From Rhizaria sp. SCN 62-66 (Eukaryota), in assembly GCA_001724265.1 (NCBI GenBank), contig MEDY01000056.1:62001-108181 (forward strand): DNA of 46,181 bases. The letters are read 5' to 3'. Made by a program: the position numbers and the translations under genes. Below are positions 16,067-46,181 of the stretch, piece by piece. The notes beneath the pieces were generated by a model. The model saw nothing but the letters and a program-made list of their open reading frames with translations. It made no database searches and had not been told where the DNA came from. Within the stretch, counting starts at the first letter, position 1. Each line of letters starts with the position of its first letter.

Positions 16067-19000
16067 ATGAACCCCACTCTCGCAGCGCCGTTCCCGGCCG
16101 CCCCGTGTCCCCTCGCCGGTCGCGTCGTCCACAGCGTCTCGCTGCATCAGCTCTGCGACGCACCATTCCGCTCCGGCGGGGCTGCGAGCGGCGGCGTGGC
16201 CGAAGGCGGCTCGTCATCTCGCTACGGCGTCGAATACTTTCATTAGTACGGCCACGACGACGATGACGATGAGAACCGGCGCGTCGCCGCCTCCTTCCTC
16301 AAGTCCGAGCTCGTGATCCGATACCCGCTTCCGCCACCTTCAGCTACATCGCCATCGACCGCCGCGCTGACGCCCGCGTCGGCCGCACGGGGTCCCTACG
16401 ACCCTAAGCAGGATCCCGAGGCCGAGACGTTTGCCGCGCTGGCCCCGTTCGTGTTCCCGCGCGGCGTCCGAGTCGCACTCGCCCCGCGCCCGCCCGCCAT
16501 CCACTCGTTCGTGCTCTCAGCCACCGCGGCGGCGGCTTTCGCGCCCCGCCCGTCCTCGTCGACCGCCAATGACAGCAGCAACAGCATGGCTACCTTGGTG
16601 GCCGGCACTGCCAACGCGGAGGCTGCAGCGGCGGCTGAGGCAGCAAGAGCCAGTGCCGCAATGTTACAGTCAGCGGCCAGCAACGCCAGCGGCCTGCCGC
16701 CGCCGCCGCCGCGCGCGCCTGTGTACGGCGTGGTGATGATTCAGTGGGTGCCTGCGCGCGCGGCCGTGACGGCGACGGTTAAGATGCAGCTTGCGCGCAC
16801 CATGCTCCGCTGGCCGCACTCGGCCGCGAGCGCCGCGGGTGGCGCCAAGAGTGGCGACGGCGGCGGCGCCAATGCGGGCGACGGCGACCGTGCGCCGCCC
16901 GCGGCGGGCGACGGCGAGGCCGACCAGGGCCCATCGCTGGCGGTGCGCACACTGCTGCACAGCCAGTTCACGCCGCTGCCCACGGTCGTCTTCGAGCCGC
17001 GCGCCGTGGTCGTGCTGAGCTACAGCAACGCGCTCACTGTTGTCACCGAAGCGCTGACCAAGGTGATGCTGCAGACGGTGTTGACGCCGCACTCGGTGCG
17101 GTACTTGCACGACGTGCTCGACGCGCTGCCAGTGCTGGTTTCCCGCGGAGCCCACGCGCTGCCGCAAGTGGTCAAGGCGCCGAGTGTGACGCTGCGGATG
17201 ACGAAGCACGTGGTCACGGACAACAGCAGCAGCGCCAGAAATGAAAGCAGCCAAAACTCGAGCTTTGTGGAGAGCAACAACAGCTCTGAGCGCGGCGACT
17301 CGAACAATAAGAAGACCAACACTGAGAGTGCAAGCTTAAGTACTTCGGTAGTTGAGGCTCACCTCTTCCATTACTTAGAAGACAACAACGCGCCCCCTTA
17401 CATTCTATCAGAGTACTCTTACAACACGTTTCGCAACCTTAACATGGCTTCAGCCACTGCGGCGCTGGCCTCGTTCAGCGCCATGCCGATGCCGTCCCTG
17501 CCAGCGGCGGCTGCCGCGGCGGCGTCAGCGGGCGCGGCGGGCGCGGTCGCGGCCGCGATCGGTCTCATGTCTCATGGACTGGCTGTCAACACGAGCTACA
17601 ACGGTGGCGGCGTTAACGCCAGCGCAAGCATGAACATCAAGACGAATAGCGGTGGGCGCAACAGTGGGCTTGAAAATGGGAGCTTCAGTGGCAGCGTCGG
17701 CGCTGCAGCGAACGCGAGTGCGAGTGGGGGCAGTGCTGGTCTGAGCCGAAACAGTCTTAGCCGAAACAACAGCCTGCTGACTGCGAAGCGCGCCGCAGCT
17801 GACGCAGACACTTCTGCTGCGCGTGCTGCCGCTACAAAAGATAGCAGCGACAGCAGCATTAACACGAACATTAACGATGATCCGAACAGCTGTAACCGTA
17901 TCAGAACGTCCGCCGCTTCGTCGGCAGCCGCAGCAGCTGCAGCCGTCGTGGCAAGCGTTGTGTCATTCGAGCCTCCCACCGAGGGCTCCTGGGCTGCAAC
18001 CAGAACCGTCGCGCGCCGCAGCGCCGTTGTGCGCGCCGCGGGCGCAGCTGCGGCAGGCACCGCGGGCGCGGGCGCTGCTGCCGGCGCCGAGGCCGCCGCC
18101 GTTGCGGCCGTCACTGCCTCGCGCGTCATTGCGTGCGCGCGCGACGCGACTATGGCGGTGGTGGATGTGAAGCCGGGAGGTTCCTATGAACCGCCGCCAC
18201 CGCTCGCCGTGGCCGCGACGCTGCCGGCCTTTGTCTTCCCGCCATATCCGTACAACACGGTACCGCTCATCGAGCCGCTGCAGTACTCGATTCTCTTCGC
18301 GCGGCTGTCGGCGCCCGTGATCACGACTGTTATCAGCGCTGTACTCGCGCAGATCAGCGTGCTCTGCGTGTCGCACTCGATCTCGGCTGTCACGCCGTGC
18401 ATGGAGGCGCTCTCGTCGCTGATCCAACCGTTCCCGACGTCGTACGTGTATGTTCCGCTGCTGGTGCCGATGATGGAGCCCGTTTTGCATGCGCCGATGC
18501 CGTTCTTTGTTGGTGCACACGCCTCGATTGTCGCCCACTTGCCCGACGAGTCGCCGACGATTGTCTGCAATCTCGACACGAACCGTGTGTTCACGTACTC
18601 TGCCGCTGGCGTCGCCCCGTTTCCGCCGCCCTTGCCACTGGCTCCCGCGCCTGCCGCGCCCGCCACGACCACCGCGGCCGCCGCCGCAGTCGCAACTGCC
18701 GAAGCGGCGATTTCCGCATCAGCTGCCGCTATCTCGGGCACGACCGGCGCCGCTGCCGCCGACGCCGCGGCAATCGACTCGTACCACACCGCGCTCGCAG
18801 CCGCCATTGCGCTCGCATCAGCCCCCGTGGCGCCCGTGCTGCCAGCCGTCCCGGTCGCGACCGCGGCCGACACGGCGCTCGCAGGCGCCGCGCTGTCCGC
18901 GGCCGCGGCCCCTGCGGCGGCGCTGACGGCCCCGTTCCTGCCCGCGCTGCTGGGCGGCAGCCACCACCCGCCCGCGCCCTCGGCCGCGGCGACGGCGACA

Positions 19001-22000
19001 GCGACGCTGAGCAACAGCACGGGCGTGAGTCTCGCGGGTGTGGCCATCACCGCGCCGTCCGTGTGCGCTGAGGCCGCGGCCGCGCCGTGGACCCCGCTCC
19101 CGGGCTCGGCAGCCGCGTACCTTGTCTCGCCCGTCACGCCCGCGTACGCACTGGCACGCGCGAGCTCCGCGGCAGGCGCGCCCGCTGTGACGCCGACGCT
19201 GCGCCTGCTGCCGGCGCCGTCTCCGGCGGGGCAGCGCGCGCTCGAGACCGCGCTACTGCTTTGGCGCGCCCCGGGCTCCTCGCTGCGCCAGGCCGGCGAC
19301 GCGCTCTCGATCGCGACCGCCGGCGGCGCCGCCGCGGCAGCCGCGGCGGCCAGCGGCGCGGAGAGCGGGCTGGGCGCGCGCGAAGCTGCTCTGCTCACTG
19401 CGCTTGCCGGCAGCGCCGCGGCGCCCGCTCTGCGTGAGCTGGCGTGGCGGCGCTTGCTGGCGGCGACCTCGGGCCGCACGGCCGCGGGCGCAGTTGTCGT
19501 CGGCGCGCACGCGTACGGCCAGGTGCACCGCAGCGGCGGGTTCGCGCGCGAGGTTGGCTGGGGCATCGCGACTGTGGGCTCCGCGGGCGGCGGCGGCGGC
19601 GTCGGCGGCGCGGGCGCGGCGGTGAGGGCCGACATGATGTCGCTCTCGTCGCTGCTGCATTACCCGGCCATGGTTACAGCGACGAGCAACTCCAGCGCGG
19701 GCGCTGGCGCATTGGCAAACGGCGTCGGTGGCGACGTGACCGTGAGCGTGGGTCACAGGGGCGTTGACGCGCTGCTGTACTTGCTCGGCGCAACAGGGCT
19801 CACGGTCACTGGCCGCATGTCTCCGATTGTGCCCTCGACATCAGCGTCAGAATATGGCCAGTTGCATGCGCATCAGCAACAACAACAACGAAGCTTTGTC
19901 CTCGAGCGGCCGCGTGGCGCAACGACTGCGACGTTAGAGCGCGCACTCACCGTTGCCGTTGCAAGGGCAACTGCTGCTGCTCTTGCCTGCTATAAGGCTG
20001 CGACATCGCATAGTGTGCAAAGCGCTTCGCAAAACACCGAAACCGATAAAGACGCTGATAACCCTGAAGCTCTGTACCAGAAGCGCCGGCTGCAACGGCA
20101 TCATCATCAGCGCCGCGCTACTGCTGCTGCAGCTGACTCCGCGGTCGCTCTCGCGACAAAGGTGCGCGGCGCACTGCGTGAGCTCGCGTCCCTGGACGAC
20201 TCGGCGGCCGGCGCCGCGTCACTTCTTCGCCTTGCTGAGCAAGCTACTCCCGCGTTTGACGTAACGACACGGTCTAACAACGCTGCAAGAGTAATTGGGA
20301 ACAACGACAAGGTTGGTGTTGTCAGCGGCGGTCTCGTGGGGCTGGAGGCCGCACTATCAGGCTGGCTTGCCAACGCTGGCCTAGAGGGCGCGGCTGCGGG
20401 TGGAGCTGACTGGAGCGATGTCTCAGTCCCGTTGGCCCATGTCACTGCTGCCGTCACAGCTGCGGTTGCTGCGTCGTTATCGTCGGTTAATACCAAGGGC
20501 AGCGGCAATGACAAGTCGGCGAACATGAACATTGCAAACGTCGGTGGTGCAGTTGACGCTCTTTGTGCTGCTGCGGAGACGATGTCGACCGTCGGCGTGA
20601 CCGCGCAGCCGCCAGGTGCCACTGCGGGTATTTCTGCTGCGGCTGCCACAGCAACCGTATCTGCCGCGGCTGCAGCTGCGCGTGGCCACATCCTGCTCGC
20701 ACGTAAGATTTGTAGCCTTATCACCGCAACGAACACGAACTCGGATGACACTTTGAGTATTGGCAACGCCTTCGTTGATGATGAAGTGAAGCAACTTGAC
20801 TCTACAAACGTTCATGGTGCAAGGCGAAGTGCTGACTCGCAAAGGACTCTGCAAATGCTGCGTCGCCGGCGTGTACCTGTCCCTCGTTGGGGTACAGACG
20901 CAATCCTCCCGGCCTCGCTCGCGTCCATTACGGACCCCGGAAGCGCGCACGGTCACTTCGGCTCCCACAGTCACGCTACATTGTCGCAGTCACTGTATGG
21001 GAGCACCGGACTTGCGGGGACGGTCGATGATCTACTGACCACCGTCACTGACCCATCTGACGAATCCACAGCCACACTGCAAACTAGCAGCTGTACTACG
21101 AACAACAACGATCACGTCTCGGTCTCGGCTCCGCGCAATCGCCGCGCTGCTGCGGCCGCTGCCGCTGCCTCCGCGGCGGCTGCGACTGCCGCAGCTTCTC
21201 GGCGGCTCAGCGCTTTGTGGGACGGCGGGGACGACGAGTTCGCGGCGCTGTCATCGGCAGTGCGTCCTCCTCTCATTCACCCTGCGATGAGTCAGCCAGC
21301 GCTGCTCATACCTGGCTTTGCGGAGGACATCATCCCGAGTCTCTCGGTGTTCTTCTCCGGCGACAACAACGAGAATAGCATAAATGACAATCCTGAAGAC
21401 AGCTCTGATGGAGCTAAATTTTGCATGGAGAGTGATGAAAAGAAGAACACTGAGTCGCCAACTAAACCGAAGCCCCAAGACGTTACGGACTCAACAAGCG
21501 AGCTGCAGTCCGAAGCTCCCGGCGGAGTGGCCGAGGCCCGTGTCCGTATTCCTCACCCGGCGACGTTCCCCGCTGCCTCCACGCTCTACTTGCCGCCCGT
21601 CTCGGCAGCACCCGCACGCACGGTTACTGCCGCCGCGGCCGCCGCGACGCACACCGCGCTGGCGTCCTACACGCGCCTTCCGTGGGCGACTGCAACGCGC
21701 GTCGGCGCGTCGCTGCAGCACGCGGCCGCCGCGCTGGGCTCCGCCGCCTTCTACGACTCACACTTTCCCTCAGTCTGGCACTGGTTCGACCTGGCCACGA
21801 CGCGCGACGCCGTGGCGCCCGAGAGCGAGTGGGGCGCCGACGGGGCGCCCGGCGGCGGCGATGCGGAGGCCGCCAAGGCTGCTGCGGCGGCGGCAGTCAG
21901 TGGGCTTTCAGGGCTGACGCGGCTTGAGCGCGACGAAGACGAAGAGTACACTGCGCTCACACACAACACCAGTGCCGTTGCCGACGCGGCGGGGGCGAAC

Positions 22001-25000
22001 GGCGGAAGCCTCAGTCTCAGTGGAGTTGGCCTGCCGAGTCTCAGCCTTGCGGCGAGCGGCGGTAGTGCAGTGGGGCAACGCGTCACCTTGCTGTCTCCAT
22101 ACGGCGCGCATCCTTATACGACGTCTGCGTTTGCCCCACGCGCGCTGCCCCGCCCGCTAACGGTCGCAACGGACGATGCGAACGGTAGCACTGGTGTGAC
22201 GGCCGATGACACCGCTGATGTTGACTCCGCCCATGTTGCTGTTGGCGGCGGTGCGGCGGTGTCAGCCGCAGCTCTGCTCGCAGCAGCAACGTCGCCTCGT
22301 GCTGCGAACGCAGGTGGACCTCCGCTGCTTGCGCGTGCCGCGACTGTCGCTGCCTCGAGCGGAAGCAGTCGGCAACGCGAGAGTGGTTTTCACTCAATGC
22401 GCACAATTGCTCCCATTAGTAGTGTTTTTTCTCCACAAACACAATCACAAACGCTTACATCACCCATTCCAACAGCAAGCGCGGGTACTGTGGGTTCAGG
22501 TACCACGGCGCCTGTGCCGATGCCGGCCAGCGGCGTCGGTAGCCGGCTGCTAAAATCGCTTGCTCCTCCTGTGCTTTCACCAAAGCACAACAATCTTATT
22601 CACGGCCACAACCACGGAACTCAGCAACGCCAAGCTGCCGCTGTACAGGCACAATCAGCGGGGGGAAACAGTGGCGACTTTATTGTCGCTTCGGTGCTAA
22701 AGCACTTCGATCACGGCTCCGACACGGAAGACAACATGAGCATCTGTGACGTACAGCAACAGCAATAGCAAGAACCGCACAGCAATGGCGGTTATGGCCA
22801 CGAAGACCAAAGTACTGAAGGTGACCACGATCACAGTCATGTTGCAACGCGCGCTCAGCACACAAGGGGTCAGAGTCGCAGTCAGGCAGACGCACCAACC
22901 ACGCGCTCTAGCACTGGCATGAATGATAGCAATGGTGTGAGCACTGCTCCTATTGCGATTCAACGTGGACAAACCCCGCGCATCTCGTATCCCAATCACC
23001 GTTTTCCCTGTAATACCAGCAGTCAACAACAAACATCTGACAGTCTTCGTGGCGGCGGCGTGAGCTTCATGCGTCCTGCGTTGCTCTCTCGCGGTCTCAG
23101 TGCGACTGGACTTGACTCTGCCGGGAGCTGGGGTGGCCGACGTAGCGGGAGCTTTGTAAACGGCAAAACCGGTAACAGCGCGCATGATCAGTTCGAAGAC
23201 GGTGGGCTGCCGAGGACTGGGACGCTGACGACGCGCGCCGAGTCCCCGTCCCTGTTTTACGATCCACGTGCCTCGCCCCACACGAACAGCAGCAACAGTA
23301 GCGGGATTCAGTATCACGGCAATGACAACGGCAACGCGGATGCTGCACTGCAGCGCCAGTCTTCGCTGACAATGATCCCGAATGGAACTATTCTGGCACA
23401 GCCTGCTTTTTCGCCGACAGCCTCATTCTCGAACACAGGCAACAACAACTACACCGCTACCAGCCCTGCGTTTGGCGCGTTGTCACCGTCTGCGAGTCAG
23501 TCTGGAACTGCAGCGGCTGCGGCTGCGGCTCGGTACTTCTCCCGTCCAGACTCGCCGTTCGCGCTTTCTCACCAGTCGGCGGCGGGATCAGCTCATGCAG
23601 CAGCAAACGATGGTGGACTTGGCCGCAGCGTTGGTGTGATCACTTCGCCCACCGTCGTTGATATCACACTCACCAACAACATTGTTACGACAAGACGTCA
23701 CGCCAGCAGCCGCGATTCGAACAGCAGCAGTAACGCGAACAACGCCGCGGCCACAGCCGCTGCAGCTGCGGCTGCTGCCGTCGCCGCAGTCATTGCGGCT
23801 GGCACAGTGCCGTGGGCCGACCTGGCCGCTGCCGCTGCTGCAGCCACAGCCACCGCGTCTGCGAGGAATTCTGCGTCGGCGAATAACGCTGCGATCGGAG
23901 GTGGCCTGCCCCCGCGCTCCTTGAAGTCAAGTCGTGCGAACGTGCTTCGCGGGTCAACACACTCCCCGTTTCCTTTTGCAGGGCCGGCATCTGTAGTGAG
24001 GCCGTCGATGCTCGCATCGCCGCATGCGTCGCTCGCTGGTCTCAGCGCTTCCGGTGCGCTGCTCAATGCGCCAATCCCAACGCCGCAGAATGCGCTCTCG
24101 TCTCTTCGTTTCGCTCACTCCGCGGCGTCAACAGGCTCTGCGCCTACCGCCAATGCCGCTGCCGCTGCGTCGTCCGCAATCATCTCAGGGTCGCTCGCGT
24201 CCCCTGGTCTCCACGGGTTTCCCACCACATCGCCGTCGCCGATCCCACTCTCGCACACGGGATCCGCCACTTTTACCGCTGCACCCACAGCGCCCGCCGC
24301 GCCCACGCTGCGACTGACGCTGCCCACACCGCTGCTGCTGCGCGGCCCTCGCCCCCGCGCCGCGACTGCCCGCGCCGCGCTCGCGCCGCTGCTGCACTTG
24401 CCGCTGCCCGCGGCCGACGCTGCAGCCGCCGGCGCCGCGCCCGCGGCCGTGGCGTTGGGCTCCTGGGCGCACGGCATCACGACCGCGCTCGCCGCCCGCG
24501 CCGGCGCTGCCGCGGCGGGCGGCCGGGTACTGACGGTGAGCGCCGCCGAGGCCGCGGTGTCGGACCCGGGGGCGCTGTTCCTGCACCCTACCGTCGGCGC
24601 AGCGGGCGGGCCCGCGGTCGCGGCGGCGTTTGTGCAAGGCGCGCTGGCGGCTGCGGTGACAACTGCGATTGAAGAGGCTGTGGAGGACCGTGCCGTGTTT
24701 GGCATCGCTGGGCAGAAATCCGCGATGATGGGCGCGGTGAGGTCGGTAACTGCCACGTCGGCTGCCGTGGTCGCAGCTGGGGCGGAGAGGATGAGTGTGG
24801 CATCACATAGGCAGCACAGTCTCTCTGGCACGATCGGCTCCCAACTCGAGCAACAGCACCAGGGACACAATCCTAGGCAAGGACAGCACATGTGGAGGCA
24901 GCAGTCTTTGACGCTAGACGACCCCCACTTACTGGATCATCATGTCTCTCCTTCGTACCCAGGCTCTGCTCAAAATGCAAACGAGATTGGATACGGCAGC

Positions 25001-28000
25001 GACAGTGTTTCCATGAACAATGGGACTGCCGGTGTATCGGCGGCTGCAGCAACGCTCGCGGCTGCTGCTGCTGCCGCTGCCGCTGCGGGCTCCTCTGCAG
25101 CAACACTAGCTTATCTCCCACCACAAGCACTTGCAGAGCTACGCCAGCGCCAGCGTCTTGCTGCTCTGGCCACGCGCATCAACACGGCTGCGGCCGCGAC
25201 CGAAGCGCTTGCGGCGACCGTGGGCGTTGCTGTCGCCTCATCCTTCACTGTGGGTGCCGTTGGTGATGCCAAGGCCGACAAGGTTGCACGTCATAGCCGC
25301 GCTTTACGTCGCGCTGGCAAGACTGGTGCGTTGGGCGGGCTTGTACTGCCCTCAGCGCTGTCATCGGCAGGCTCGCACTCACGCGGTAGGAGTAGCCACG
25401 GCTTCGGCAGCGATACCGGCGCCGTGCTTAGTGACGAGGATGGTGATGGGGGCGAAACTGCTGAAGAAAGCGTTGCACGTCAAGGTGGTAACGCGAATGA
25501 CGATGAAGCGGTTAGTGATAGTGACAATGGTCATGATAAGCCCCACATAACTCGTCCTCCGTTACAACAGCAGGATCGCCCTCGCATCCGCAACCGTCGC
25601 AGCGGTCGTTGTACGCCCCTTCGCGGCGCCGGCACTGCAAGCCTCGCAGGCTCCAGCGCGTCCCTCCCGTCCCTGATATCGTCAGCTGCCCTGTTATCTC
25701 CGACCGCGCCGCTCGCCTTTGCAAGCAGCGGCAGCGCCTCGCGCGCCGGCTCGGTGGCCTTCACAACCGCGACGAGCGCCGCCGGATCCGCTGCGCACGG
25801 CCACTCAGCGCACGGATTCAGCGCGACTGGTTTCACCAGTGGCGCGTTTGCGAGCGCAAACGCCTCGATCGCGGGTCCGGTGCAATCGACCGCAGGCGGG
25901 GTCGCCGCTCCCTCCGCCGCGGCCGCCGCCTTCTCTTCCCCCGCGTCTTCCACTGGAGCGCAATCGAGCGTCCCAGCCACCGAGGCGCTGTCGCGCGTTA
26001 TCCTCGCGGCCCCGCTTCACCCCTGGGCGACGGGCCTGTCACGGCGCTCGCGCCCGCCCTCGCTACGTGCCACAGCGCCTGGCACCGCGACGGCGATGCT
26101 GCTCGCGGTCGACGTTGCGCGCGGTGTATGGGCGCGCAGGCTCGTCCGCCTTGCAGCGCGCGCGGCGGCGACTCGGGCGCGGGCGGCAGTGCGCGCTGGT
26201 GCTGCGGCTGAAACAGAGGCCACGGAAGCGATTGCGCAGGCGGCGCGCGTGGCCTTGGCTGCAGAGGAAGACGAAGACGCTCGATTCGATATGCGCCTTG
26301 ACTTTCATCACTGGGCGTCAGGCATGCCACTGCCATCGTCACACTGGCGTCCGCCGCTACCGCTCGTGCAAGCCTCAGCCGCCAGTAGCACGGTTCAGGC
26401 TGATGCTGAAGCGGCTGCTGCGGCTGCGGACTCGCTATCGCAACTCTTGCCGCCAATGTGCCACGAGATGCGTGCTCTTCGCGCTTCGCGGTCAGTTTTC
26501 GCGCTGCCGGCGGAAGGCAGGGCGGCGTTTCCTCTTGTGAACGGCGCCGCTATCGAAGCGTTAGCAGCCGCCTACGCTGTCGCTAATGGTGTCACTGCTT
26601 CTGATCGCATAGCAAGCAGTGGTATAATGCTTTATGACCGTGAAAGTGGACTGGCCAGCACGGTCCCTGCTGTCACCACAGCTGTAACTAATACCAAAAC
26701 TAACCATGTGGTAGTGTCAACGACTGCGTACCCTCAAGCTAACGACTCTCCTTTGACGGTGAACGATCTGGGGATTATTGTTAATCGCGGCGTTGTCGGC
26801 AACGTAGGACCGGCATTGCTACATATTGCAGATATTGATCCCACGTTTATTGCGCTACGTGCAACACAAGAACGCGATGCTCTTGTCGCCGCTGTTGCGT
26901 CCGTCGTTGCGGCTGATGCTTTGAACGCTGACGCAGACTCGGAGGTTGAGATGGAGGCCGCTGCGGTGGCTGCGTCTGAAGCCGCTCTCGACATGAAAAT
27001 GGCGATTGTGGGCAGCACTGCTGACGAACACAGTATCAGTAGAGACGGCCATGACGTCAATGACCACGTAAGTGATGTGCGAAGTCCTACAAAGCCCCAA
27101 GGACTCACTCTTGCGGTGCTTGCCGCGCTCGATGACGAAACTGGCGTGTCCCGGCGTAACGCTCGCCGTCGTGGCAGTGATAGCTGTGAAAGCGCGGACA
27201 ACAGTGATAGCACTGATCGTGACGATGACGGTAGTGAGGACAGCTTTTGCGACAGTATTGCGCTCACCAACACTGCGCCTCCAACCACGATTACAGGCGG
27301 AATCTGTGCACCTGCTGCAGCTACGTCTGGCACAATGTTGATGTCTGCCGACGCCACTGATGAGCTGTCGACAAGTGCTGGTGTCGTCATCTACGCCGCA
27401 AACCACACACACTGGCTTAACACACCGCGCGGACCCTACGAGAGCCTCACTGCTCGCGCCGCTCTTGCCCACGCCGCCGACACGGGAATGTTTGCTCCTC
27501 AACTCGCTCTCGCGTCTTCAGCGCATCCTGAGTGCCCCTTTGCACCCACTGTTGATCCAGACACCAACGAGACGATGAGTGTGGTACCGTACGTTGACTC
27601 GCGTTTCCGCCTAATCACTAACTCAGGCGCAGTTGATACAACCCCTGTGGCAAACACGACGGGAACTGTATGTGGCTTTTTTGGCTCGACGTCACCCGTT
27701 CATCATATTCCGTCTCATTCTGACGAAGGTGTTTCCATGACTCATGCAGATAGTACCGGCGCTGCTCCGAATGCATTGACTCTCATGCTCCCCTCGGCAT
27801 CATCATCGTCCACGTCATCGCGTTGTCCGTCAAGCAATATCCACAGTAGCAATGCGAACAACAACTCGGGCAGTGGCAGTGCAGACGAGGCTCGGACTGC
27901 ACTCAACAGCACCAATAGTGGTCTTCTTGCCGTAGCATCAGCTCCGATCTCAACGGTGCTTTCTCGTGCGTCAACAGAGCCCGAGAACGACAACGACCCT

Positions 28001-34000: not shown

Positions 34001-37000
34001 ATTGGTGATAACGACTGTGACGCTGTGTTGATGGCTCGCACGCTTGCCCAAGGTAAGAAAAGCAACGACTGCAACACCGCTGTACAAGGCCCGCAAACGC
34101 TCGCAGACGCTGTCTCTGTCCTCGCTGCCGTTACAGCGTCAACTCCTCTCAGCTCCGGATCTTCACCTAACAATGGCGGTGGACTCACGCTGGACAGTTC
34201 GCGGTCCCGGATGGCTCTGTTGACAGACCCTGCTCAGCACAGGTGGGTGTTGTCCTTCCTAAGTGCACTAACGGAACAGCAAGCCCAGCTTATGGCAACT
34301 GAAGCTGTTGTCAACAAAGGCTCTGATAACCGCACCAGCGCTGCCGCCTCACATGTTTCAATGATTTCTAACTGTCTTGGAGGGCGTTGCGATCGCGGTC
34401 TGTCTCGTCTTTGTTTGGCACATGCTGTTCTTCTTGCCGGCACCACTGCGACCGCCGCTGAGGCTACTGCGGTGCATGTTGTCAGTTTGCTTGGCGGCAC
34501 CGCGACCGCAGTAAGTGAGGCCGCACCTGTTGCGTCTGCAACTGGCGGATATAGCGACAATCTCGCAGCGCTCACATCCGCTGTCTCTGCAGCCGCCACC
34601 ACAACAACTCCTATTACAAGCCTTCACGACGTGACTGTGAGTTTCCCATCGTCTCCTGCACCGTCCTCGCTTCTCGCAGCATTGCTGTTACCGCGTATGT
34701 ACACAGTGCTTCCCGCATCGGCTTGGCCGCCAGTGTCATTATCCTCGCTCCCGCTTGCTCTCACCACTGCGGCTTCATCCACAGTAGCGACTGTGGCCAC
34801 TCACAGGAACTTAGGTGGACTCACAGCGCGCGACGTGTCAATATTGCGTAGCTACCTTGCTGCCCCACCTGCTATGTCTTCGCCACACTCCCTTGCGTTG
34901 TCTCCTGCAGCCCTGCTGCGCGTTCGTCTCACTGCGTTCTCCGCCGCAGCTGCGGAGTCATGGGTATCAGCAACTACTCGCGTTGCATCATCGCGTGCGC
35001 TTGTGTTGGCGCGGCTGTGGACATCGTTTGTGGCTCAAAACGCAAGTGTTGTCGAGAACGCGCTCGGAGTGGCGTTGACTGTCACAAACCAGGCTGCTGA
35101 TGACTCTCTTTCAACTGTAACGGAGCACGCGTTGATGGGTCGTCTCAAGTCGATGGGCAGCGATGTAAGCGTCAGCAAGTTTGATTTAGGCAACTCTGAA
35201 ACCAGCGCAAAGGCTGCGGCACTTGGATCGCCAGCATGGCGCGCTGCTGTCTGTGCGGCTGCAGCAGCAGCGGCTGGTGTCAAGACTGCTACCGCGCATA
35301 TCACTGCCAGTAGAGCTGCTGCAGCAACTGCTTCTGCGAGCAGTGGTGGTCAAACGGCAAAGACAGTACACGTGTTGGAAATCTCGAGTGATAGTGTTGA
35401 TGATGCTCCATTCACGACGCTGCTTACAGTCACTTCATGTGCGGCTGTCAGTCTCGCACACGATCTCTCCGCTCTTGCCTCTGGAAACGACAATGCCAAT
35501 TCGACTGCCGGTGCGAGTGAGGCATCGCTGGCATCTGCATCCGTTGCCCGTGCTGATGCGCTGTCAAGCCAACTCCTTACACACTTCTCGCAATACGTCC
35601 TCTCAATCCTTCCTGAACAAGGGCAGGAAAGCATCGATCTTGCGAACAGCAATCACAGGGACATTTATGCAAGCGCTGCCCCTAATACTACAACCATCGA
35701 CGCAGTGCCTGCAGCAGTATCCTCTCCGTTCTTACCCACACTTATCCCGGGCCGCGGGCTTGGCTCGACAACACACGCCGTCTCTGCCTTTACGCGTGCT
35801 TCTGACTCGCTCGCACGCACGGTTGCTGCAGAAGCCGCGGCCGATGTTGCACACGCTTTGGCTGAAGCTGCGGCACAGGCGACGCTTTGTGCCGCGGTGT
35901 GTGTCGACGTCGCAAGGAATGCGGCGCGTACGCGGCAGCGTAAATCGGCGCTGAACAGCAACAGCGCGAGAAACCCGCAGTCTGTATTGGCCGTGAATGC
36001 TGACGAGAGCAACAGCCGTGCGAGTGATGCGGCCGAGTGCCAATGGATGACAATGCCCACAGTTGACGCGATTCTCCGTCTCATTTCGCAACGCATGTCC
36101 TCGCGCGCTGCTGCGAGCTTCATTGTCACCCCCAACATTAACAGAATCCCGTCTGTTAGTTCCTCTGCGAGTGTGTCGCCGAGTGCGGTTGCATCGCATA
36201 ATCACTCACGCTCTAGCTTTGCGACTAACGCCGTCGCTAACACAAGCTCCGTCTTAGGTACTAATCGTGCGGGCAGTGAATCTATCTCGACCGTTGCCAG
36301 TAGGCTCCCTGCGCTTGTTTCGCACTTTGCCCCAGTTCAAGCGGCAGCTTTGGCATCCGCGTTTGCCGCCGCCGGCGCCTACACAGTCCCCGCCCCGCAC
36401 TCGGCCGCCGCGGTGCTCACATCGCACCTCCCCGGTGCGGTCCCAGGCGCCGTCATCCAGGCCACGCGCGCGCGTACTGCGCACGCCACCGCCGATGCTG
36501 CTGCTGCGGTGGCTGCCGCCGCTGCCGCTGCTGCTGCTGCTGCTGCTGCTGCGGCTGTGCCGGACATGATGGCTGGCTATGGTGGCGACCCTGGCGAGGA
36601 GCCTCAACACCAACAGCAACCGCAACAGCAACAGCACAAAGGAAGGGCTGTCGCAGCACTTACCGCGCCCACGCCGCTGCCGATCGCGGCCATCGGTACT
36701 GGTGCCGCCGCGTCTCCTATGCCTCCACCACCACTGCCGAGCCCCGGTCGCTTTGCGCGCAGTCTGCTCGGCCATGAGACGCACCTCCAGCGCCGACTGC
36801 GTCTGTTGCGCGAGTGGCAGTACCAGCGCGACTTGGCTGCGGTCGCGGCGCTGCTTGCGGCGGTGCGCGCTTGGGCTATGAGGGAGATTACTGTCCGTGT
36901 GCAGTGGGCTGCGGCTGGGGGTATTGTCCTGAAGCGCGCAGCTGTTGTTCCCCGCACTCTGTCCGACAACAGCGACTTTAGTAACAGGGTAGTACCTGTC

Positions 37001-39979
37001 ATTGATATTGAGCTGTACGACAGCGTCGACTCGCTGCCGCGCGACGCGCCGCCTCTTTCGCTTGCCGTTGGTGCGAATTCATGTGTTATAGGGAGTGGGT
37101 TAGCGGCTGCATTGAGCTTCATGCACCCCGATGGCATTTCACTTGACCCTATCACAGCCGAAAAACACGCAGCTGTGAGCAAGAGCTCGAATACTAGTGT
37201 TGGGAAGACCAAGTGGTTCGGCGTGGTTCCCCCGGCAAATGGTCGCCACGCTCACCCGCTTCGCCCTCTTGCCACAGCCATTAATGACAACGGGCGTGGT
37301 CGCGATGCGATCGACGACATCAACGCCTTCCCGTTGTCGCTACCCCCGTCTGCGCCGATTGCGGTCCACATGCCATTCATTGTGCAGACTGTGTTGGCGT
37401 CAGTGTTTGAGGATGTCTCGCGCATCCATGACGAATACGCTGCGCAATCATGGGATCTTTCATTGGCTCACGACCAATCCGCGAACAAAAGTCCACACGT
37501 CAAACATGACTCATGGAACCGCTCCCCGCGCGCCCACGCTGCCGCCCTGACGCGTCTACTGCTCTCGCATGCCCCGTCACCTCTGTCTACCCCCGCCGCA
37601 GCTGCATTGGACGAGCTCGCCCGTGCGCTTGCTGCGTGCAAGATGCTCACACGTGGACTCACGGCGCCGCGCGAGACTGCCCCGTTGCTTTCTTTCTTTG
37701 GGACAGCAACGCCCTTTGCAATTACTGGCGCAGATGCCGCGTCTGCCCTAGTTGGCGCTGGTATTGTTTCGGATCTGGCTGAGGCAGCGCGCGCGTGTGC
37801 GCTGATGACGGCCGCGGGTGCGCTTGCTGCGATGCCTGTCAAGGGCGCCGCGGTTGTAGACACGGCACAGAGTGCGGCTGCAGCAGCTGCAGCAGTGGCG
37901 GCGGCAGCGGACGCGGCGGGCGACGTCCCAGCACCTCTTGCGATGTCTGTGGCTGCTGCGACAGCGAGCGCGCTCTGTGTTGTGCCGGGTATTGATCCTG
38001 CTGCGACAACGGTGCCAGCCCAGGCACCGAGCGTAAGGGAGATTCTGAGTTACGAAAGCACGCACTCATCTAAGCCTCAACAAGGCGTGTGCGCTGACGC
38101 CGATGGTGTGCCGGCAGTTGTAGGAGGTGTGAAGATGACATTGTCTCATTCGTCTTTTGCAATTCCGCATGCTGCAGTGCTGCGCATCTCAGTGCCAACT
38201 CACGGCGCGAATCTTAGTGTGGTTAACCAACACAAAGATGTTCAATCAGACACGACGCAGTCGCGCGCTAAGGCATCGACTGATAGCTCTTTTGCTGCAG
38301 GTAGTGTTAGCAATTCTGGCAACACTCCTGGTGCACTGTATCAGTGGCTTGCAGGACACCCTCTGCACGGCCCACTCGCACGCGCTAACACATTTGTCCT
38401 CGGTGATGCTGAACCTTTACTTACACAGCAAAGGAACAACCCTAGTGACGGAACAAGCAGCCGCGACCCCGGCGCCCAAACTGGTTTCCTGGCTGGCTTG
38501 CTCGACTCGCCGCACAGTCGTGGACTATTTGAGGCTGCCTGGGCGCACTCCCCGCTGCCACGATCACCACTGTTTACTGTTGCGAATACGAGCAATGTGA
38601 ACGATCAAGCATCGGTAGGCTTTATGTCAACGTCGTCATCAGCTGCGGCTGCTGTTGTTACACGTGTTGTTGCTAGTGCTGAAGTTCAATCTTCATTGAA
38701 GCGTGTCATGAACGTCGAGACCGAGTCCAAATCGGCTGGTGACAAAGTGTGGATTAGTAACATCAGCTCGCAACGTTGCATTGCCTACACTGACAATAAC
38801 GCTAATATCAGTCTGGATACGATGGTGAGCATCAACTCACACACAACTTCGTCTGGCAAGGACAATATTAACAATCCGAGTCCCCTCTCGGCCCCAAAGG
38901 GTGTAAGTACCGCCAAATCCGTTTTCGTCGCGTTACCATCGCCTACCGAGTCCATCGGTCCCGTGTTTTCTCCGGCGTACGGCCCTGTATTCACCGCTGA
39001 TGACAGTGTGTACCGTTTCACGTACCATCTCCTTAGCCCGTTACTTCCATCAGTTGCGCCGTGTCCGATTCCGCCACTCTTCACCACTGCAGCCGCCGCA
39101 GCCACTTCGGTGGCGACTCGCCTCAATGCGCGCACAAGCGGCGCGGGCAACAGCGGTGGTGCTGGTGCGAATGCGAGGAATGTGCCTTCCGCTCCGTCTG
39201 TCCCCGGGCTCTGTCTCAGCGTGCTCCCCACCAACGCTCGCGCTTTGATTGCGTACTCGACCCTCACGCCCACTCCGGTCGACTACCTCATGGTGCGTGC
39301 ACTGCGGTTTGCGCTCAAAGATCATCTTGAGGAGCGACCGACTCTCCGTGCCCACGCTTGCGCCGCCGCCACCGCCGCTGCGCACACAAAGGCTCTTTAT
39401 GCTGGCAATGTGGCAGCAGCGGGAGCGCGGGGCGGCATGGGAGGAATCGCGGTGGGAGGCTTTGGCAATCCCGTTGTGACTGTGGGCGCCGGCGTCGGGG
39501 AGAGCGTAATGTTCCCTCTCGCTCTCAAACCGTCTCAGAGAGACAACCGCGAGGACGTCAATGAAGAAGATGATGACGACGATGATGTTGATACTGAAGA
39601 GGAGACGGAGCTTGAGCTGATGAAGGCTGAAGCTGCGTCCCATCTTCCAGTCCTCTGTTTCACTGCCGCCGCCGCCGCGCGCGCGCTGCTCGACTCGGAA
39701 CAGCTTGTCGCGACCGAGGCTGAAGCTGCAACGGTGCTCACGCGTTTGTTGCACTTGGAGCTCATTCACAACAACAGCTCGCGACACCCGGGACCTGGCC
39801 CCATGGTGGGGACGGCAGCCGAGGTTGCCCTTCCCGCAGGGCTTGGCAAGGACTTCGTGCTGCCGCCCAGCCCTGCCGTTGTGGCTGATAAGGGCAATAA
39901 CGTACTGCTTAAGGAGGTTGTCAAGGTGACTGGAAACGCTTGGTACTACTTTAGCCCCGTTGTTACCTCGCTTGGGTGA
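16067..39979 (+). CDS. Giant DENN-domain protein (putative Rab GEF), about 7970 aa, with a PH-like segment and two C-terminal DEP-like domains; contains 3 in-frame TAG codons
   Basis: ORFs 16064-16246, 16313-22768, 22919-31051 and 31076-39979 share one frame and are separated only by single TAGs (16244, 22766, 31049), with no other stop in the gaps. uDENN motifs KSELVIRYP, FVFPRGV, HSFVLS, VYGV, PRAVVVLS. cDENN at about 18281-18590: LFARLS...EALSSLIQPF...YVPLL...LHAPMPFFVG...CNLDTNRV. Ends TGA TAA. Confidence 0.75.
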
Positions 39980-40756
39980 TAAAAATATGAAGTTTCAAGT
40001 TTCCGACAAACATTGAAAGCGATTGAAAGCGGTTTTTAAGTTAACTTTAAGGCCTCAAGAATGTTGTCTATTGGCAATCACAAGACCGACTATGTTTACC
40101 ATATGTCGGTTTTAGTTAATGATTTTGTAGAATTAGTAATGATGTATAGTTTTTGTGGTGATATAGATGCATATAACAATATCATCCGTGCTTTATATAC
40201 ACTTGCTTTATTTAGAACCATGTGCACACTGATTTTTTACTTTGAGGGAATACTGAGACGAGATACATGCATCAACGTGTACATCTAACATATTCGGTAG
40301 GAACATCTGTTTATCTTCCGTCGTCGTTGAACATCTCGACATAACAACGCTTCACGATGTATGGACTGTGAATGTAAAGCAACAAGACGTTTGTGGTTGA
40401 CTGTCCACCGAACTGCAACAAATCCATCTAAGGCGAAGGCCGCCGCTGCAAAAGTTCAAACATGGTTAAGTGCGCTAGTGTGATCGTTGATATAAAATCT
40501 GTCATTGATTTCATAACGTCGCGTTTTTTTACTGTTGTATAAATCTATCTACACTTGAATTATGTTTACTTAATTCTGTCAAATCACTCTGACAATCACA
40601 CGACCCAATCCAATGCCGAGCCGATCTCTCCTCATCTCGCCTGTCTCTGCTATGTCATTCATAGTCAAGTCCTCATCGAGCGAAGAAGGCAAGTGTATAG
40701 ACCGAGACATTAAAACCCGTCTGTGCTTGCTTAAGCGCGCCAAAATCTTCTTAACG

Positions 40757-42919
40757 ATGTCCTTCCCGGCTCCCCCGCCAGCAGACCTTGCCGAGTCAGC
40801 GTCTCCACCGTCTCTGTCGCCGTCGGACCCATCGTACTCGCACGAATACCCATCATTTCTCGCCGGACTCACCGCGCCTGTGATTCCGCATGGATCGATC
40901 TTTATTGACCTTTCGCTTCGCGATGCTGCATTTGCGTACAACGCGACAAAGAAGATCTGGAACCGCGACCATCTCAAGGCCGACATTATCGAGCAATGGC
41001 GCTCTCTCGGTCACGTTACTGCCAATCGCTCTCACGGCAATAACCTTCTCATCACGCTCTCTGTTCGATCCGCGCTTGACCTCTTCCTAACCTGCCAGCG
41101 GTACCCGCAAGGGTCTTTGGTGCTGATCGGCGCTGTAAACATCCCCGACGTCGCCACCGTCATCCGTGCCCACGGCCTTGTGCCCGTCCCGATAGACATC
41201 GACGTCGACGCGTTCGACATGCGCCCCGACTTGCTAGAAGCAGCCCTGCAGCTGTATGGCACGCTGCCGCCGCACTGCCAACCTGCTACAGTTGCGAGCG
41301 CGGCCGCCAATGCCCTTGCTCCCAACGCGGCAGTTTCGTCTGTGCTTGCGGCTGTGAGCGCAGAGCCCCCGCGTGTCGCTTTCGTGCTCACCGCGCACAT
41401 CTTTGGCCGCATCACAGACGTCACACCGCTCATCACCCTCTGTTGCAAGCACAGCGTGCCGTTTGTTGAGGACCTGGCGGAGGCGCTTGTTGGCAACCAC
41501 CAGCGCTGTTTCGGACACCCGGACAGCGACGTCACGCTGCACTCGTTCGGCACCTCCAAAGTACTTTTTCAAAAGATCACACCAAATGATATTGTTTGAA
41601 TTTCTTTGTGGAGTTAGAAAGTTTGTTTATGAATCATGTTGGTTCACATATATCTCTATCTGTCTTTTTCGTCTGCTCTTCACAGTACTTCACTGCGCTA
41701 GGCGGTGGTATCGCTCGTGTGCGTGACCCCGTACTTTACAAAGCGATGAAGGCGTTGCTAGAGACGCAACCCATTACCCCCGACTCCGACTATGCTGCCA
41801 AAATTGCAAAAGTTGCACCTGTAATGACTGTGCTCAACTCAACAATGTTAAGCGCTGTGGGAATGCGGGCGGCGCACGCCTTCAACTACGACTACAAGAC
41901 TAAAGCTGTCACGATGTTGCGTGGTACGCAATCGAAAAATGTGCTGCTGGCTCATTATCATTAAACGTGGATGTTTTTTTGAATGTAACCTGACCCTTTA
42001 TCTGATTTACCCATTTCTATCTGTTGTTGATGTTTTTCTGTTTGGCGTCACAGGTTTCCCTGACCGCATGATCGAGCGCATCCGCGCGCAGCCGGCGACG
42101 TCGCACCTGGCCCTGCTGCGCCGCCGCCTGGCCCAACTTAACTCCCCCGCGGGCACTGCCGAGCTGCTCGCCTCCGCGCGCGTCTTCGCGCAGGTCCAGT
42201 CACTACTCGCGGCTCGCGACGCCGACGCCGAGATCGTCGCCACGGGCCGCAGCGTGATCCCGACCGCGCCCGCGGCCCCGCCGCGCGTCGCGCTGTCCGC
42301 AGCAACCGCGCTTCCGGGCGCCGCACCCGTGGGCCCGTTGCACGCGTCGTGGCTGTTCCCTGTCGCCTTCCGCGACGTCGACGCCGCCGTGGCCGCACTT
42401 TCAGGGCTCGGTGTCGACGTCTACCGCGGCGCCACGCAGCTCGCCGCGCTGCCGCCGCCCGAAGCGAGCGCCGTCAACGCGCCGGGGGCCGCGCCGGGGA
42501 CCGCGGGGTGGCGGCCCGCGGCGCGCGCGGCGGACGCGGAGTGGGCGATGGCGCACGTGGTGTACCTGCCGGTGAATAAGCGCATGAGCGAGGCGATGGT
42601 GAGCCGCGTTGCGCAGGCCGTAGTGGCCGTCGGTGGGGTCCGCAAGCTGGGGCAGGGGCCGATTCTGCGCTCGAGCTACGGCAACGGCCGGAGCCATAAC
42701 AATCGCGTTGAATCGAGACTGAATGCTAGCGCAAACACTGAGACAGCCACGGACGCCTGCAATGTTGACGCTGTTGCAAACTTGAGTAGCACAAACAATA
42801 GCGGAAGTGCGAACGGTGGAAATGCCGTTTCTGATGTTGCTGTGAGGTACAGTGCGGTTAACGGTAGAAGTGGGATTGAGCTGTGTTCGCGCGCTGGAAA
42901 GCTCGATGCGAAGCTGTGA
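40757..42919 (+). CDS. PLP-dependent aminotransferase, DegT/DnrJ/EryC1/StrS family, about 635 aa; exons 40757-41560, 41686-41923, 42054-42919
   Basis: Motifs LSVRSALDLFL, GLVPVPIDID, AHIFG and FVEDLAEA. Splicing restores SFGTSK|YFTALGGG, which carries the PLP-binding Lys. C-terminal VVYLPV. Stop is TGA. The start codon choice is inferred. Confidence 0.85.
41561..41685 (+). other. Spliceosomal intron, 125 nt, phase 0
   Basis: AAA|GTACTT...CTTCACAG|TAC; AT-rich; removal rebuilds the catalytic motif. Confidence 0.9.
41924..42053 (+). other. Spliceosomal intron, 130 nt, phase 1
   Basis: G|GTACGC...GTCACAG|GT; T-rich; removal gives MLRGFPDRMIERIR. Confidence 0.85.
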
Positions 42920-43244
42920 AATGTGCAGGCCGTCAACACGTCAACTGACTTTCACTTACCAAATGCTCCTCTTGTAATACTGGGGGCGTCAAAAGCAACG
43001 CGCGTAAATTATACACCACTGTAGAAATCTTGATTTAGTGTTTTGTAATGTACAATATACTTACAGTCGATTGTACAGATAGTGGTTGATTTTCACGGTT
43101 TTTTTAAACCGCGTCCGATTATTATTTGAATACATTTTTTATTGTCATTTCATAATGCCCAATTTAAATTAAAAAAATGCGCTCTCTTGACTCTATCCTA
43201 GCGATCGGAAAGATACTTTCGCAACTTTCGCAACTTCGACCCCT

Positions 43245-43770
43245 ATGCCGCCTAAGAGGAGGACGTCTTCGAAGCCTCGTGAGCCTCAAGCAGAGAGCCA
43301 AAGGCGCGTATTAACTTTGTAAGTCATCTCAACGGCACAGTAGTCGCGGTTCATTTGATGCCGTTGCGTTCAAGAACGTTTTTGAGTGTATTGTGCGCCA
43401 GCTGCGTCTCATGCACACTGGTGACACTCCTACTCTTGTGCTTGATAACGCACGCATTCATCACGCCAACATCATCCAGTCTTTGATTAAAACATGTGGT
43501 GTGAATATTGTGTATCTTTCACCCTATTCACCTTCTCTTAACCCGACCGAGAACCTCTTTTGAGTTGTGAAGAGTCTGATCAACAAGCGCTGGGTGCCAA
43601 ACCCGCCCACTGATAAGGCACAAGTCCTTAAACTAGTTAAAAACATCATCCGGGACCTCATGGAAAAGACAAGGAACTACACTCGTGCTTGCTACTACTC
43701 ACACTTGCGCAACCAAGTCAAGGCCATCGGGCTGAGAGGTGAGATTACGTATCCCTCGGAGGATGTTTAA
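43245..43770 (+). mobile_element. Decayed, internally deleted Tc1/IS630-superfamily (DD34E) transposase pseudogene
   Basis: The frame from 43321 reads RGSFDAVAFKNVF...LVLDNARIHHA...YLSPYSPSLNPTENLF*VVKSLI. Asp at 43444 and Glu at 43549 have 34 residues between them. Premature TGA at 43561. The first catalytic Asp region is missing. A short MPPKRR...RRVLTL* stub starts at 43245 in another frame. Confidence 0.85.
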
Positions 43771-44257
43771 CTCGTTGACTGGATCCTAAACTTGGGTTTT
43801 TGTGCGTATCTCTCTTGTCAGCAGCCTCAGTTAGCGGTAGCGCGAATGGCGGCAGAGTGGGTGACAAAAGATAAGAGCCGAGACACATAGTCGCATACCT
43901 TTTTGACGAAGCCCTGTTGCACTTGGGGAATCTTCAGCGAGACGCCATCCTCCTTCTCTTCTTTGCAGACAGCTGCTTGGAAGTCTGCGCTGACGCTTCA
44001 GCGATTGTCGTGTCATCCGGCGTAACACCTAGATTGTTCTGAACAGATAGGGCGGATGGGGATGATGGCGCGGATTGCGCGGCGTTGCGCGTCGGCCATA
44101 AAAAGTCCACCACTTAACATAAACCGAGATAGGAGACAAAGGGGAAGATGAATAGGAGCGGACCGTGATGTGAGAACAACCATGTGCCAAGTCACGGTTG
44201 TGTTTTACTATTTGCTTTTTACATATTCCTGTACAATGTACGGACATGCTCGTAAGC

Positions 44258-45278
44258 TTACTGTGTAAACTGCTCCGGAAACACTGCCTCTAGCCGAGTC
44301 TGCAAAATTGCCCTCTGATCAGCCCACAGCTTGTTGCTGCTGCTGTTATTGTTGTCATTGCTGTCACCAAGAGCAGTGGTAATAACTTGTAAGCGTTGAT
44401 TCTGCTCAAAAACATACTTGACCTCGTCATCACTCAACTTGGCCACCGTCTCCATTAACATATACGCACTTTGCGGCTAAGCCACAGTATCACCGGCGCG
44501 GCTTAGCTTAGCAGCAAGGCGGCTTAACATCGCGTCGAACCCATCTCCCATTGCAAACGCCATAACAGCTAATTTGCCAGCGGATTCGAACAGTGCACGC
44601 AAAGTGGTGTAAATTTCAAAACAGATATTGTTGTTTCGACGGGTATAGTCAGAGTGTTGTTGCGAAGCAGTGCTAAGGACTGTGATCAAGCGGGTAACTA
44701 AGCTGCTAGATGCTGAGTCAGCAGAGCTGGCGTTAGATGCTACGTCAACAGCGAGCGCGCTTGCTGAGTCAGCAGAGTTGGCGGAAGCTAAGCCGCCACC
44801 GTCGCCGCCACCGTCGCCGCCACCGTCCGTTGCAAATGCGTTATACCTACAGAGGCACGTGATCACAAGGCTGATTCGCGGCAGTAGATTCGCACTATTA
44901 TGACTCTCCCTTTCCAGCAGTGACAAGAGATCACTTAACGCTTTTTGCCTGTTAACGGCTGAAAACGCAGCCGTTTCCGCGAGTGCGAGTGTGATATGCA
45001 GTAACAGGTTGCAGATAAGGTCATCATCGGTGGTAGGGTGCTTCGACTTCGGGCTCAGAGTACAAAGGCGGGGGGAAAGGAAAAGAGAGGTCATTTTACC
45101 GCAGTCTGCGGCGTTGGCGAGGAGAGTTGAGCAGTCTAATTGGGTTTGGGGAGGCCACGACATGATCGTGTCACCGGTTACAAGGAGTTTAAGGATTTTA
45201 AGGAGTACTACCACCCGCTGCATCTGCTCCTGCTCCTGCTCCGCCTTCTGAGACTGCGACTACTGCTGCGGAGACTGC

Positions 45279-45371
<93 letters not shown>

Positions 45372-45672
45372 GTTGTTGTTGTTGTTGCTGCTGCTGCTGC
45401 GAGGCTGCTTCGTATAAGATCACAGGAGTTAGTTGCTGCATGAGCAGCGACACAACGTTGCTCTCAACCAGATCATGCATGACCATGTCACTTGTGAAGT
45501 CGTCGTCGTAGCTGTAGGGGTCACTTTGGCAGTCTCGAATGGCATTCCAAAGCTGACAGAGAGAAGCGAGGCTGAGAGGGTTAGAGTCTCTGGTAGTCAT
45601 CGAGGCTAGAACTTGACGGAGAGTGACCAAACGCCAGTCGACCTCGTCGTCGTCGTTAACGCTAGTTGGCAT
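44258..45672 (-). CDS. Hypothetical Leu-rich helical protein with a poly-Gln tract, about 471 aa; needs 2 TAG read as sense and a 1-nt correction in the CAA repeat (gene with assembly error, or pseudogene)
   Basis: ATG at 45672 (MPTSVNDDDEVDW). One base is missing near 45370 in (CAA)n. The corrected frame reads Q...QSPQQ*SQSQKAEQEQEQMQR (TAG 45262-45260), then GDTVA*PQSAYMLMET (TAG 44479-44477), and ends at TAA 44260-44258. Confidence 0.6.
44711..44829. repeat. Intragenic duplications: 22-nt direct repeat and (CCGCCACCGTCG) about x3
   Basis: TGCTGAGTCAGCAGAG(C/T)TGGCG at 44711 and 44762; the tandem 12-mer encodes DGGGDGGGDGGG on the - strand. Confidence 0.8.
45275..45399 (-). repeat. (CAG)/(CAA)n microsatellite encoding about 40 Gln
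   Basis: (ttg)n and (ctg)n on the + strand, with one gat interruption and one 2-nt unit near 45370. Confidence 0.95.
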
Positions 45673-46181
45673 GGCAGCAAGGGGGACTCTTTGGTAAGTG
45701 CGGATAAGCGTGGGGAAAAGATGTGAGCGCGGGAGAGGAGAGGCAAGTGAGGGGAGAGAGAGTGGCAGTGCGTGGAGGCAAAGAGGTGTCAACGAAAGAA
45801 GGGATTTGCGTTATCACATACAGCGAACTAAGGAAACACAAAAATATAAATCATTTCAACCAAACCATATTGTTTTGCGTTAATATCAGTCGCGGAAACG
45901 GTAATCTCAGCGCAAACCAGAGCGTGAAACTTTGAAGATTTTGGAGGGTCTGTCTGACCACAAACGATAAATGTCAACGAGGTCTGCCAGAATCATTTTT
46001 TGGCAACTTGGGTGAGCTCAACATATAGTGTTTTGCGTGTCTGCCCCTCAGAATGTTGTATCAAGAGATTGATATTATTTTCTCTATATATAATTCTCCT
46101 TAAAACACCTTTATTTAACACGCATACCTGTCACCTCCGACTCTCCCAAAGCTCACCGCTCTTCCTTTCAATGGCGCCACC

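Follow-up and report, generated by a model that had tools for sequence, protein, structure and literature searches.

In the 46,181-nucleotide (nt) stretch of DNA analysed here, referred to as the window and taken from contig MEDY01000056.1 of Rhizaria sp. SCN 62-66 (assembly GCA_001724265.1, positions 62,001 to 108,181 of the forward strand), a giant gene of the uDENN-DENN-PH-DEP type is interrupted by three in-frame TAG codons, and two more stand in a smaller orphan gene, g6. The translation of TAG in the giant gene, with TAA and TGA ending genes, is well supported, and the explanation that we favour and hold to be moderately probable is that UAG codes for an amino acid in this gene at least, and probably genome-wide, with UAA and UGA serving for termination. 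The two genes and the TAG codons are as follows.

16067..39979, plus strand: giant uDENN-DENN-PH-DEP gene of 7970 codons and a TGA, followed at once by a TAA, with three in-frame TAG
16244..16246, plus strand: TAG1, codon 60, in the context G-V-E-Y-F-H-TAG-Y-G, inside the first strand of uDENN
22766..22768, plus strand: TAG2, codon 2234, in CAG CAA CAG CAA TAG CAA (QQQQ-TAG-Q), between the DENN core and the PH-like part
31049..31051, plus strand: TAG3, codon 4995, between the PH-like and DEP-like parts
44258..45672, minus strand: orphan gene g6, with an N-terminal part in the frame that starts at ATG 45672 and a C-terminal part in another frame that ends at TAA 44260-44258
44477..44479, minus strand: TAG4 of g6, in the context TVA-TAG-PQS
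45260..45262, minus strand: TAG5 of g6, in the context QSPQQ-TAG-SQSQ, doubtful
15986..15988, plus strand: upstream TAG outside the finding, in frame but 5' of the start, in a region (15890-16066) without coding signal

On re-reading, the coordinates and peptide contexts of the five TAGs reported by the original prediction (16244, 22766 and 31049 on the plus strand, 45262 and 44479 on the minus strand) were correct, and the frame stays open past each of them as had been stated, so that 15881..39979 forms a single frame of 8032 codons when TAG is counted as a residue. The gene itself (16067-39976) contains three TAG, no TAA and no TGA in its 7970 codons, compared with TAG/TAA/TGA counts of 31/35/129 and 61/70/200, or 195 and 331 stops, in the two off-frames of the same stretch, and it runs across 24 kb with no frameshift. 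Codon-usage log-odds, trained on the two TAG-free genes of the window, namely gene 1 and CFAP58, were positive in the giant-gene frame in each of the 27 blocks (900 nt) that cover 16067-40366. The coding score was positive on either side of every TAG and negative upstream of ATG 16067, and the 60 nt on each side of the TAGs have a GC content of 0.50-0.64 and score as coding. The TAG at 15986 was rejected as a sense codon, because it lies upstream of that ATG where no coding signal is present.

The three pieces into which the TAGs divide the giant gene are parts of one protein, because matches to a family profile run through them in order and exceed those of all 100 shuffles. This profile was built from the five closest homologs (P0009, P0010, P0013, P0017 and P0039, which are unnamed metagenome or ENA records), and its principal matches in the giant frame are given below.

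18227..18631, plus strand: DENN core, residues 721-855, 82.5 bits to the family profile; Pfam PF02141 at residues 729-839, E 3.4e-14
29744..30406, plus strand: split PH-like region, residues 4560-4780, 24.3 bits at profile positions 937-1144, between TAG2 and TAG3
37457..37963, plus strand: DEP-like region, residues 7131-7299, 4.5 bits at profile positions 1232-1389, after TAG3

The profile also matches uDENN parts at residues 115-153, 219-252 and 302-427, again with the order kept, and the best score among 100 local shuffles of residues 2235-7970 was 1.5 bits, none of them reaching 24.3 or 4.5. The DENN core, uDENN and the downstream modules are therefore found in one chain of the kind seen in two of the five profile homologs, in which Pfam recognizes uDENN, DENN, dDENN, PH and DEP in a single chain of 1575-1843 residues. 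In the giant frame itself, the Pfam match to uDENN is weak (E 0.013) and that to DEP, further downstream, is faint (E 0.33), and dDENN, PH and DEP are not reported at E up to 0.01. Nevertheless, the domain order is that of five library proteins of the uDENN-DENN-dDENN-PH-DEP type, which share with the giant gene the FxFP..HSFVLS and VKMQ motifs, the split PH-like part and the DEP-like part. The difference lies in length, since these nearest homologs comprise 1473-1843 residues whereas the giant gene has 7970 codons, the excess being low-complexity insert rich in Ala, Ser, Thr and Gln that also lies within uDENN. A library search returned 698 proteins at E up to 0.001, and, the two pieces of the window itself aside, the matches listed align with nothing but the DENN core, with identities of at most 43% there. 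BLASTP of the full frame against 148 library matches gave a single high-scoring segment pair outside the core. The two library entries that derive from the giant gene itself end at TAG1 (59 residues) and at TAG2 (2151 residues, with a GTG start), indicating that gene callers using the standard code break the 7970-codon gene up into these two parts and others, and leave the catalogued proteins of this organism fragmented.

The original prediction had recognized no TAG in a conserved alignment column, and this no longer holds for TAG1, which falls in the motif L-[VI]-[DE]-Y-F-x-[VLI]-[VFI]-[GS] in the conserved first uDENN strand of 33 homologs, chosen solely by the FxFP..FVLT motif and by at least 45 residues before that motif. 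The TAG1 column of these homologs reads V13 L8 I5 C2 E1 T1 with three gaps, so that Val, Leu or Ile occupy 26 of 30 sequences and Gln is never found. Furthermore, the next in-frame ATG after TAG1 lies only beyond the FxFP and HSFVLS motifs of uDENN. An AlphaFold2 model of residues 1-438, poor as a whole (mean pLDDT 53.7), places a strand at residues 55-63 in a block with pLDDT of 66-79, which may be taken as a weak hint only.

The TAGs are real bases and not errors of one assembler. The original prediction had called for these bases to be confirmed, and independent assemblies indeed carry them. Contigs of coded runs were compared with the window outside 16000-25278 and the repeat at 45279-45387: TAG3 is present in record 10 of run X4 (29797-33542) and record 4 of run X2 (30191-31354), two runs from studies other than the probable source study, and TAG4 in record 8 of X2 and record 30 of X6, in each case with no differing letter. 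TAG5 is likewise present in record 8 of X2, and record 31 of X6 retains it next to six inserted nt behind 45251 that keep the frame. TAG1 stands in the JGI contig L001, identical to the window across all 1122 bases, and an open reading frame (ORF) call (P0005), which begins at residue 83 and stops one residue short of TAG2, is recorded on four contigs. When pieces of the DENN gene were searched against metagenome and genome contigs, the first piece met only an identical 1122-nt contig and the middle piece had no match.

As the original prediction stated, the six gene ends are TAA (9973, 14947 and 44260) or TGA (10326, 39977 and 42917), three of each and none of them TAG, and the five gene models contain neither TAA nor TGA in frame in 13,189 codons. 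It was also right that gene 1 (3324 codons) and CFAP58 (927 codons) are free of in-frame TAG.

Several observations weigh against a change of the code. The absence of TAG from six gene ends would have a probability of 0.08-0.26 under the standard code. In-frame TAG is confined to two of the five gene models, being absent from gene 1, CFAP58 and a DegT-like gene (4886 codons), and the four safe TAGs per 13,189 modelled codons correspond to about 0.3 per 1000. Within the DENN gene, the TAG/CAG ratio is 0.027 versus 0.46 for the synonymous pair TTG/CTG, making TAG about 17 times rarer, and such rarity also fits tolerated nonsense or site-specific readthrough. The base after TAG is C or T in all five cases, while the pyrimidine share of first codon bases in both genes is 0.37 (p 0.007), and purines (A, G, A, G, G) follow five of the six true stops (Fisher p 0.013 versus the TAGs). 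A pyrimidine after a stop codon has the look of a leaky termination context, and termination at UAG may still be active. RNA support is thin, consisting of a single spliced contig of X6, a run labelled as probably DNA, and in the polyA run X5, which may contain DNA, the contig is unspliced through intron 1 of the DegT-like gene. ARAGORN reported no tRNA in the window, and hence no tRNA(CUA) there, the window has no eRF1 gene, and the libraries searched contained no close relative for ortholog comparison at the TAG sites. Lastly, g6 changes frame near 45372, inside a (CAA)n run upstream of TAG5, and this gene may be damaged.

The most serious rival retains the standard code and supposes leaky or programmed readthrough of UAG at a few sites, where near-cognate tRNAs (Gln, Tyr or Leu) would insert a residue in a weak context. 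We regard it as improbable, although it would be in keeping with the pyrimidine after every TAG, with the 17-fold rarity of the codon and with the confinement of TAGs to the two genes of lowest GC content at third codon positions. The difficulty is that three stops would have to be passed in one ORF (codons 60, 2234 and 4995 of 7970), the first of them inside a folded domain, and the losses would multiply. Moreover, a pyrimidine follows 242 of 422 Gln codons, so the context bias falls to p ~0.06 if TAG is Gln-like; the full readthrough motif of the CAR-YYA type occurs at none of the five sites; and efficient decoding would be hard to limit to single sites. Programmed readthrough in its known form prolongs a protein beyond its normal end, and an explanation by one leaky terminal stop, an extension and a 3' motif was rejected here, as the giant gene has three internal TAGs whose only shared feature is the +4 pyrimidine, although RNA structures behind the TAGs were not searched for. 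The two TAG-bearing genes also have the weakest codon bias and are of low complexity, a combination that would suit gene decay, in which the TAGs would have arisen as nonsense mutations, either in pseudogenes or in giant genes that evolve fast and can be dispensed with. A transition turns CAG into TAG, the repeat pattern predicts CAG at two of the TAGs, and g6 has in addition a 1-nt frame shift in its (CAA)n run, with no homolog found for it.

Nevertheless, decay is a poor candidate overall, and for the giant gene it is unlikely because 24 kb hold no frameshift and because all five stops are TAG. Random nonsense would yield TAG with a probability of 0.47 in the DENN gene and 0.31-0.34 in g6, which gives p ~0.011 for five TAGs from the genes' own codon content and bears out the earlier argument that random decay should produce TAA and TGA as well. 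Of random substitutions in the DENN gene, about 2% are nonsense, so that some 150 would be expected for three such changes; with one indel for every 20 substitutions, the probability of no indel would be at most 5.5e-4, whereas the gene is free of frame shift, TAA and TGA alike. The coding signal is not weakened past any TAG, and the TAGs are common to samples of at least three studies from 2015-2025, whose contigs show only seven single-base differences in 20 kb. Removal or alteration of the TAGs in mRNA, whether short in-frame introns are spliced out or U is edited to C, is the least likely of these accounts. The organism does possess a TAG-ending intron, in CFAP58, and for TAG5 the pair 45423..45260 would remove the repeat together with the TAG and mend the frame. 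On the other side, the flanks of TAG1 to TAG4 are GC-rich and coding-like up to the TAG, unlike the known introns of the window, and an intron there would need a length that is a multiple of three and would have to lack other stops. The X6 contigs keep TAG4 and TAG5 unaltered, and the TAG5 contig continues into the repeat, although X6 may contain DNA.

Returning to the decoding of UAG as an amino acid, it would most likely be achieved by a cytoplasmic suppressor tRNA with a CUA anticodon, whether or not eRF1 has also become less responsive to UAG. With internal stops at three places, the first as early as codon 60, hardly any full-length protein would be made if decoding were inefficient, and efficient decoding would act on all UAGs in the cell. 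Given the rarity of TAG and the pyrimidine that follows every one of them, the change may be young or may still compete with termination.

As to the inserted residue, Gln has about an even chance, Leu or another aliphatic residue is a possible though distinctly weaker candidate, and a residue outside these groups is less likely again. The original proposal that UAG means Gln is tentative, with context in its favour and conservation against it: two of the five TAGs follow QQ, and the conserved column of TAG1 is devoid of Gln. In the two TAG-bearing genes, QQ precedes 43 of the 268 Gln residues and 20 of the 8096 that are not Gln, none of them Leu, and the repeat CAG CAA CAG CAA TAG CAA predicts CAG at the position of TAG2. 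Of the two TAGs that had been placed in Gln runs, the one at 22766 stands, and the one at 45262 is perhaps intronic. The Gln-run context favours Gln, which is the commonest outcome in known cases, but it also fits any other meaning should CAG>TAG changes give rise to new TAGs where the protein tolerates them. In the TAG1 column, Gln ranks 11th of 20 residues by BLOSUM62, although this is one site only and the adjacent residue in the gene's own strand is a polar His.

UAG and UAA are nearly always reassigned jointly. In agreement with the earlier statement, an uncoupled change of UAG is known from few eukaryotes, namely the rhizarian exLh, Iotanema, Scotinosphaera, Protocruzia and some phyllopharyngean ciliates (PMC5304391 and PMC11687900). 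UAG is described there as Gln, with UAA and UGA as stops, in the fornicate Iotanema spirale (PMC5304391) and in Protocruzia tuzeti, Hartmannula sinica and Trochilia petrani (PMC11687900), and as Ser in Scotinosphaera (PMC11687900). UAG is given as Leu in the sainouroid rhizarian exLh, with 384 in-frame UAGs in 71 genes (PMC5304391), and in three TARA genomes of phyllopharyngean ciliates that have a tRNA-Leu(CUA) (PMC11687900). The window resembles the UAG=Gln systems in that only TAG interrupts its frames, TAA and TGA end its genes and two of its TAGs stand in Gln runs. It differs from them in having four or five TAGs in two genes, one of these TAGs in an aliphatic column, instead of hundreds of in-frame UAGs in many genes with conserved Gln columns. 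The UAG-only change in exLh and the TARA genomes is similar to that of the window, and Leu would fit the TAG1 column; on the other hand, the TAGs of the window are far sparser than the exLh count, and no Leu of the two genes follows QQ, yet two of five TAGs do.

A further comparison is offered by Condylostoma, Blastocrithidia and the karyorelictids, in which, in the account of PMC5304391, a codon is read as sense inside genes and as a stop at gene ends. Rare internal TAGs in weak contexts would be compatible with continued recognition of the codon by eRF1, whereas the ambiguous codes, as described there, involve UAA and/or UGA too, and no gene end of the window is TAG. The literature searched yielded no GC-rich wastewater eukaryote with a UAG-only code, which is not proof that none has been described. 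Several lineages are already known to have UAG-only codes, and the organism of the window is probably a further member of this group; if confirmed, the unusual traits of the case would be its very rare use of TAG and the biased downstream base. A further unrelated UAG-only lineage, if true, would provide an independent data point on stop-codon capture, and the combination of rare TAG with a biased downstream base could be informative on the order of events in a code change.

For g6, TAG4 is safer than TAG5, because the 72 codons between TAG4 and the TAA have a coding score of +39.2 versus -65.3 and -51.7 in the other frames; the coding log-odds before TAG4 is +16.5. The frame change of this gene could reflect a real mutation in a damaged gene, a mis-assembly of the repeat or a bridging intron. 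As many as 187 frame-restoring GT..AG pairs can be enumerated, and the choice among them is not decided by enumeration. One of them, the GC-poor pair 45423..45260 (164 nt), would turn TAG5 into the end of an intron and restore the frame, so that TAG5 is doubtful: it could code for a residue within a Gln run, close an intron as its final three bases or belong to a gene that has been damaged. Pfam gave no noteworthy family for g6, and a homolog search with its C-terminal part at E 0.001 returned none, which is not evidence of absence given the 8000 word-sharing candidates that crowded the listing. The repeat itself (45279-45387, minus strand) is a 109-nt (CAA)n/(CAG)n run with a 1-nt slip, reading five CAA, CA and CAA again. 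The X6 strain carries near TAG5, on the minus strand, an extra Ser-Gln unit (6 nt at 45251) and a Met>Ile change (45092), with the TAG kept.

Beyond the two TAG-bearing genes, the window contains the following features.

13108..13240, minus strand: CFAP58 intron of 133 nt, GTTCGT...TGTAG, directly after ATG 13243-13241
40757-42919, plus strand: DegT/DnrJ/EryC1-type aminotransferase gene with three exons, 635 codons, no in-frame stop and two AT-rich introns
41561..41685, plus strand: intron 1 of the DegT-like gene, GT..AG, 125 nt, GC 0.32
1-9975, plus strand: gene 1, an open-ended Ala-rich ORF of 3324 codons with no Pfam family, no in-frame stop and a TAA end

The first exon of CFAP58 consists of the ATG alone. 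A TAG at 13110-13108 in the CFAP58 frame was rejected as a sense codon, being the end of the 133-nt intron after this ATG, and the terminal TGTAG of this intron shows that introns of the organism can close with TAG. CFAP58 is full-length, with query residue 35 aligned to residue 36 of its best match, PDB chain 8glv_LP (E 8.1e-73), which we take to be from Chlamydomonas, and the presence of this full-length axonemal ortholog indicates that the organism builds a flagellum. A library search with CFAP58 at E 0.001 gave no match, although 8000 word-sharing candidates crowded the listing and absence does not follow, the PDB relatives being clear. In the DegT-like gene, the splice joint 41560>41686 of an X6 contig provides a positive control for spliced RNA of the organism in X6. 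The nearest Atlas clusters of this gene are all bacterial or viral, so that it may be of bacterial origin and now a spliced eukaryotic gene.

The window, one 46-kb contig, is a eukaryotic contig of wastewater-type metagenomes. Part of the searched stretch 36200-46181 is present in 13 coded runs from eight studies, four of them with half or more of its words, and the runs carrying it are labelled bioreactor, wastewater, activated sludge or microbial fuel cell. The contig family extends to 153,568 bases. GC content ranges from 0.49 to 0.73 in blocks of the whole window and from 0.38 to 0.46 between genes; the exons are GC-rich, and the three introns that can be defined are 125-133 nt long, with GC of 0.32 and 0.38 for two of them. 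Given the high GC, the multi-gene contig and the length of these introns, the organism is in our judgement unlike ciliates. A tentative picture, which we advance with low confidence, is that of an undescribed, deep-branching, GC-rich wastewater flagellate caught early in a UAG-only code change, at an ambiguous-intermediate stage and possibly with a Leu or other aliphatic meaning rather than Gln. An Rfam scan of the window gave no match. In the DENN gene, five single-base differences between samples (25493, 29746, 35597, 36636 and 39697) do not suffice to test for selection; GGC>GGT and TCG>TCA are synonymous, and the other three (A>T, V>I and H>R) replace a residue conservatively.

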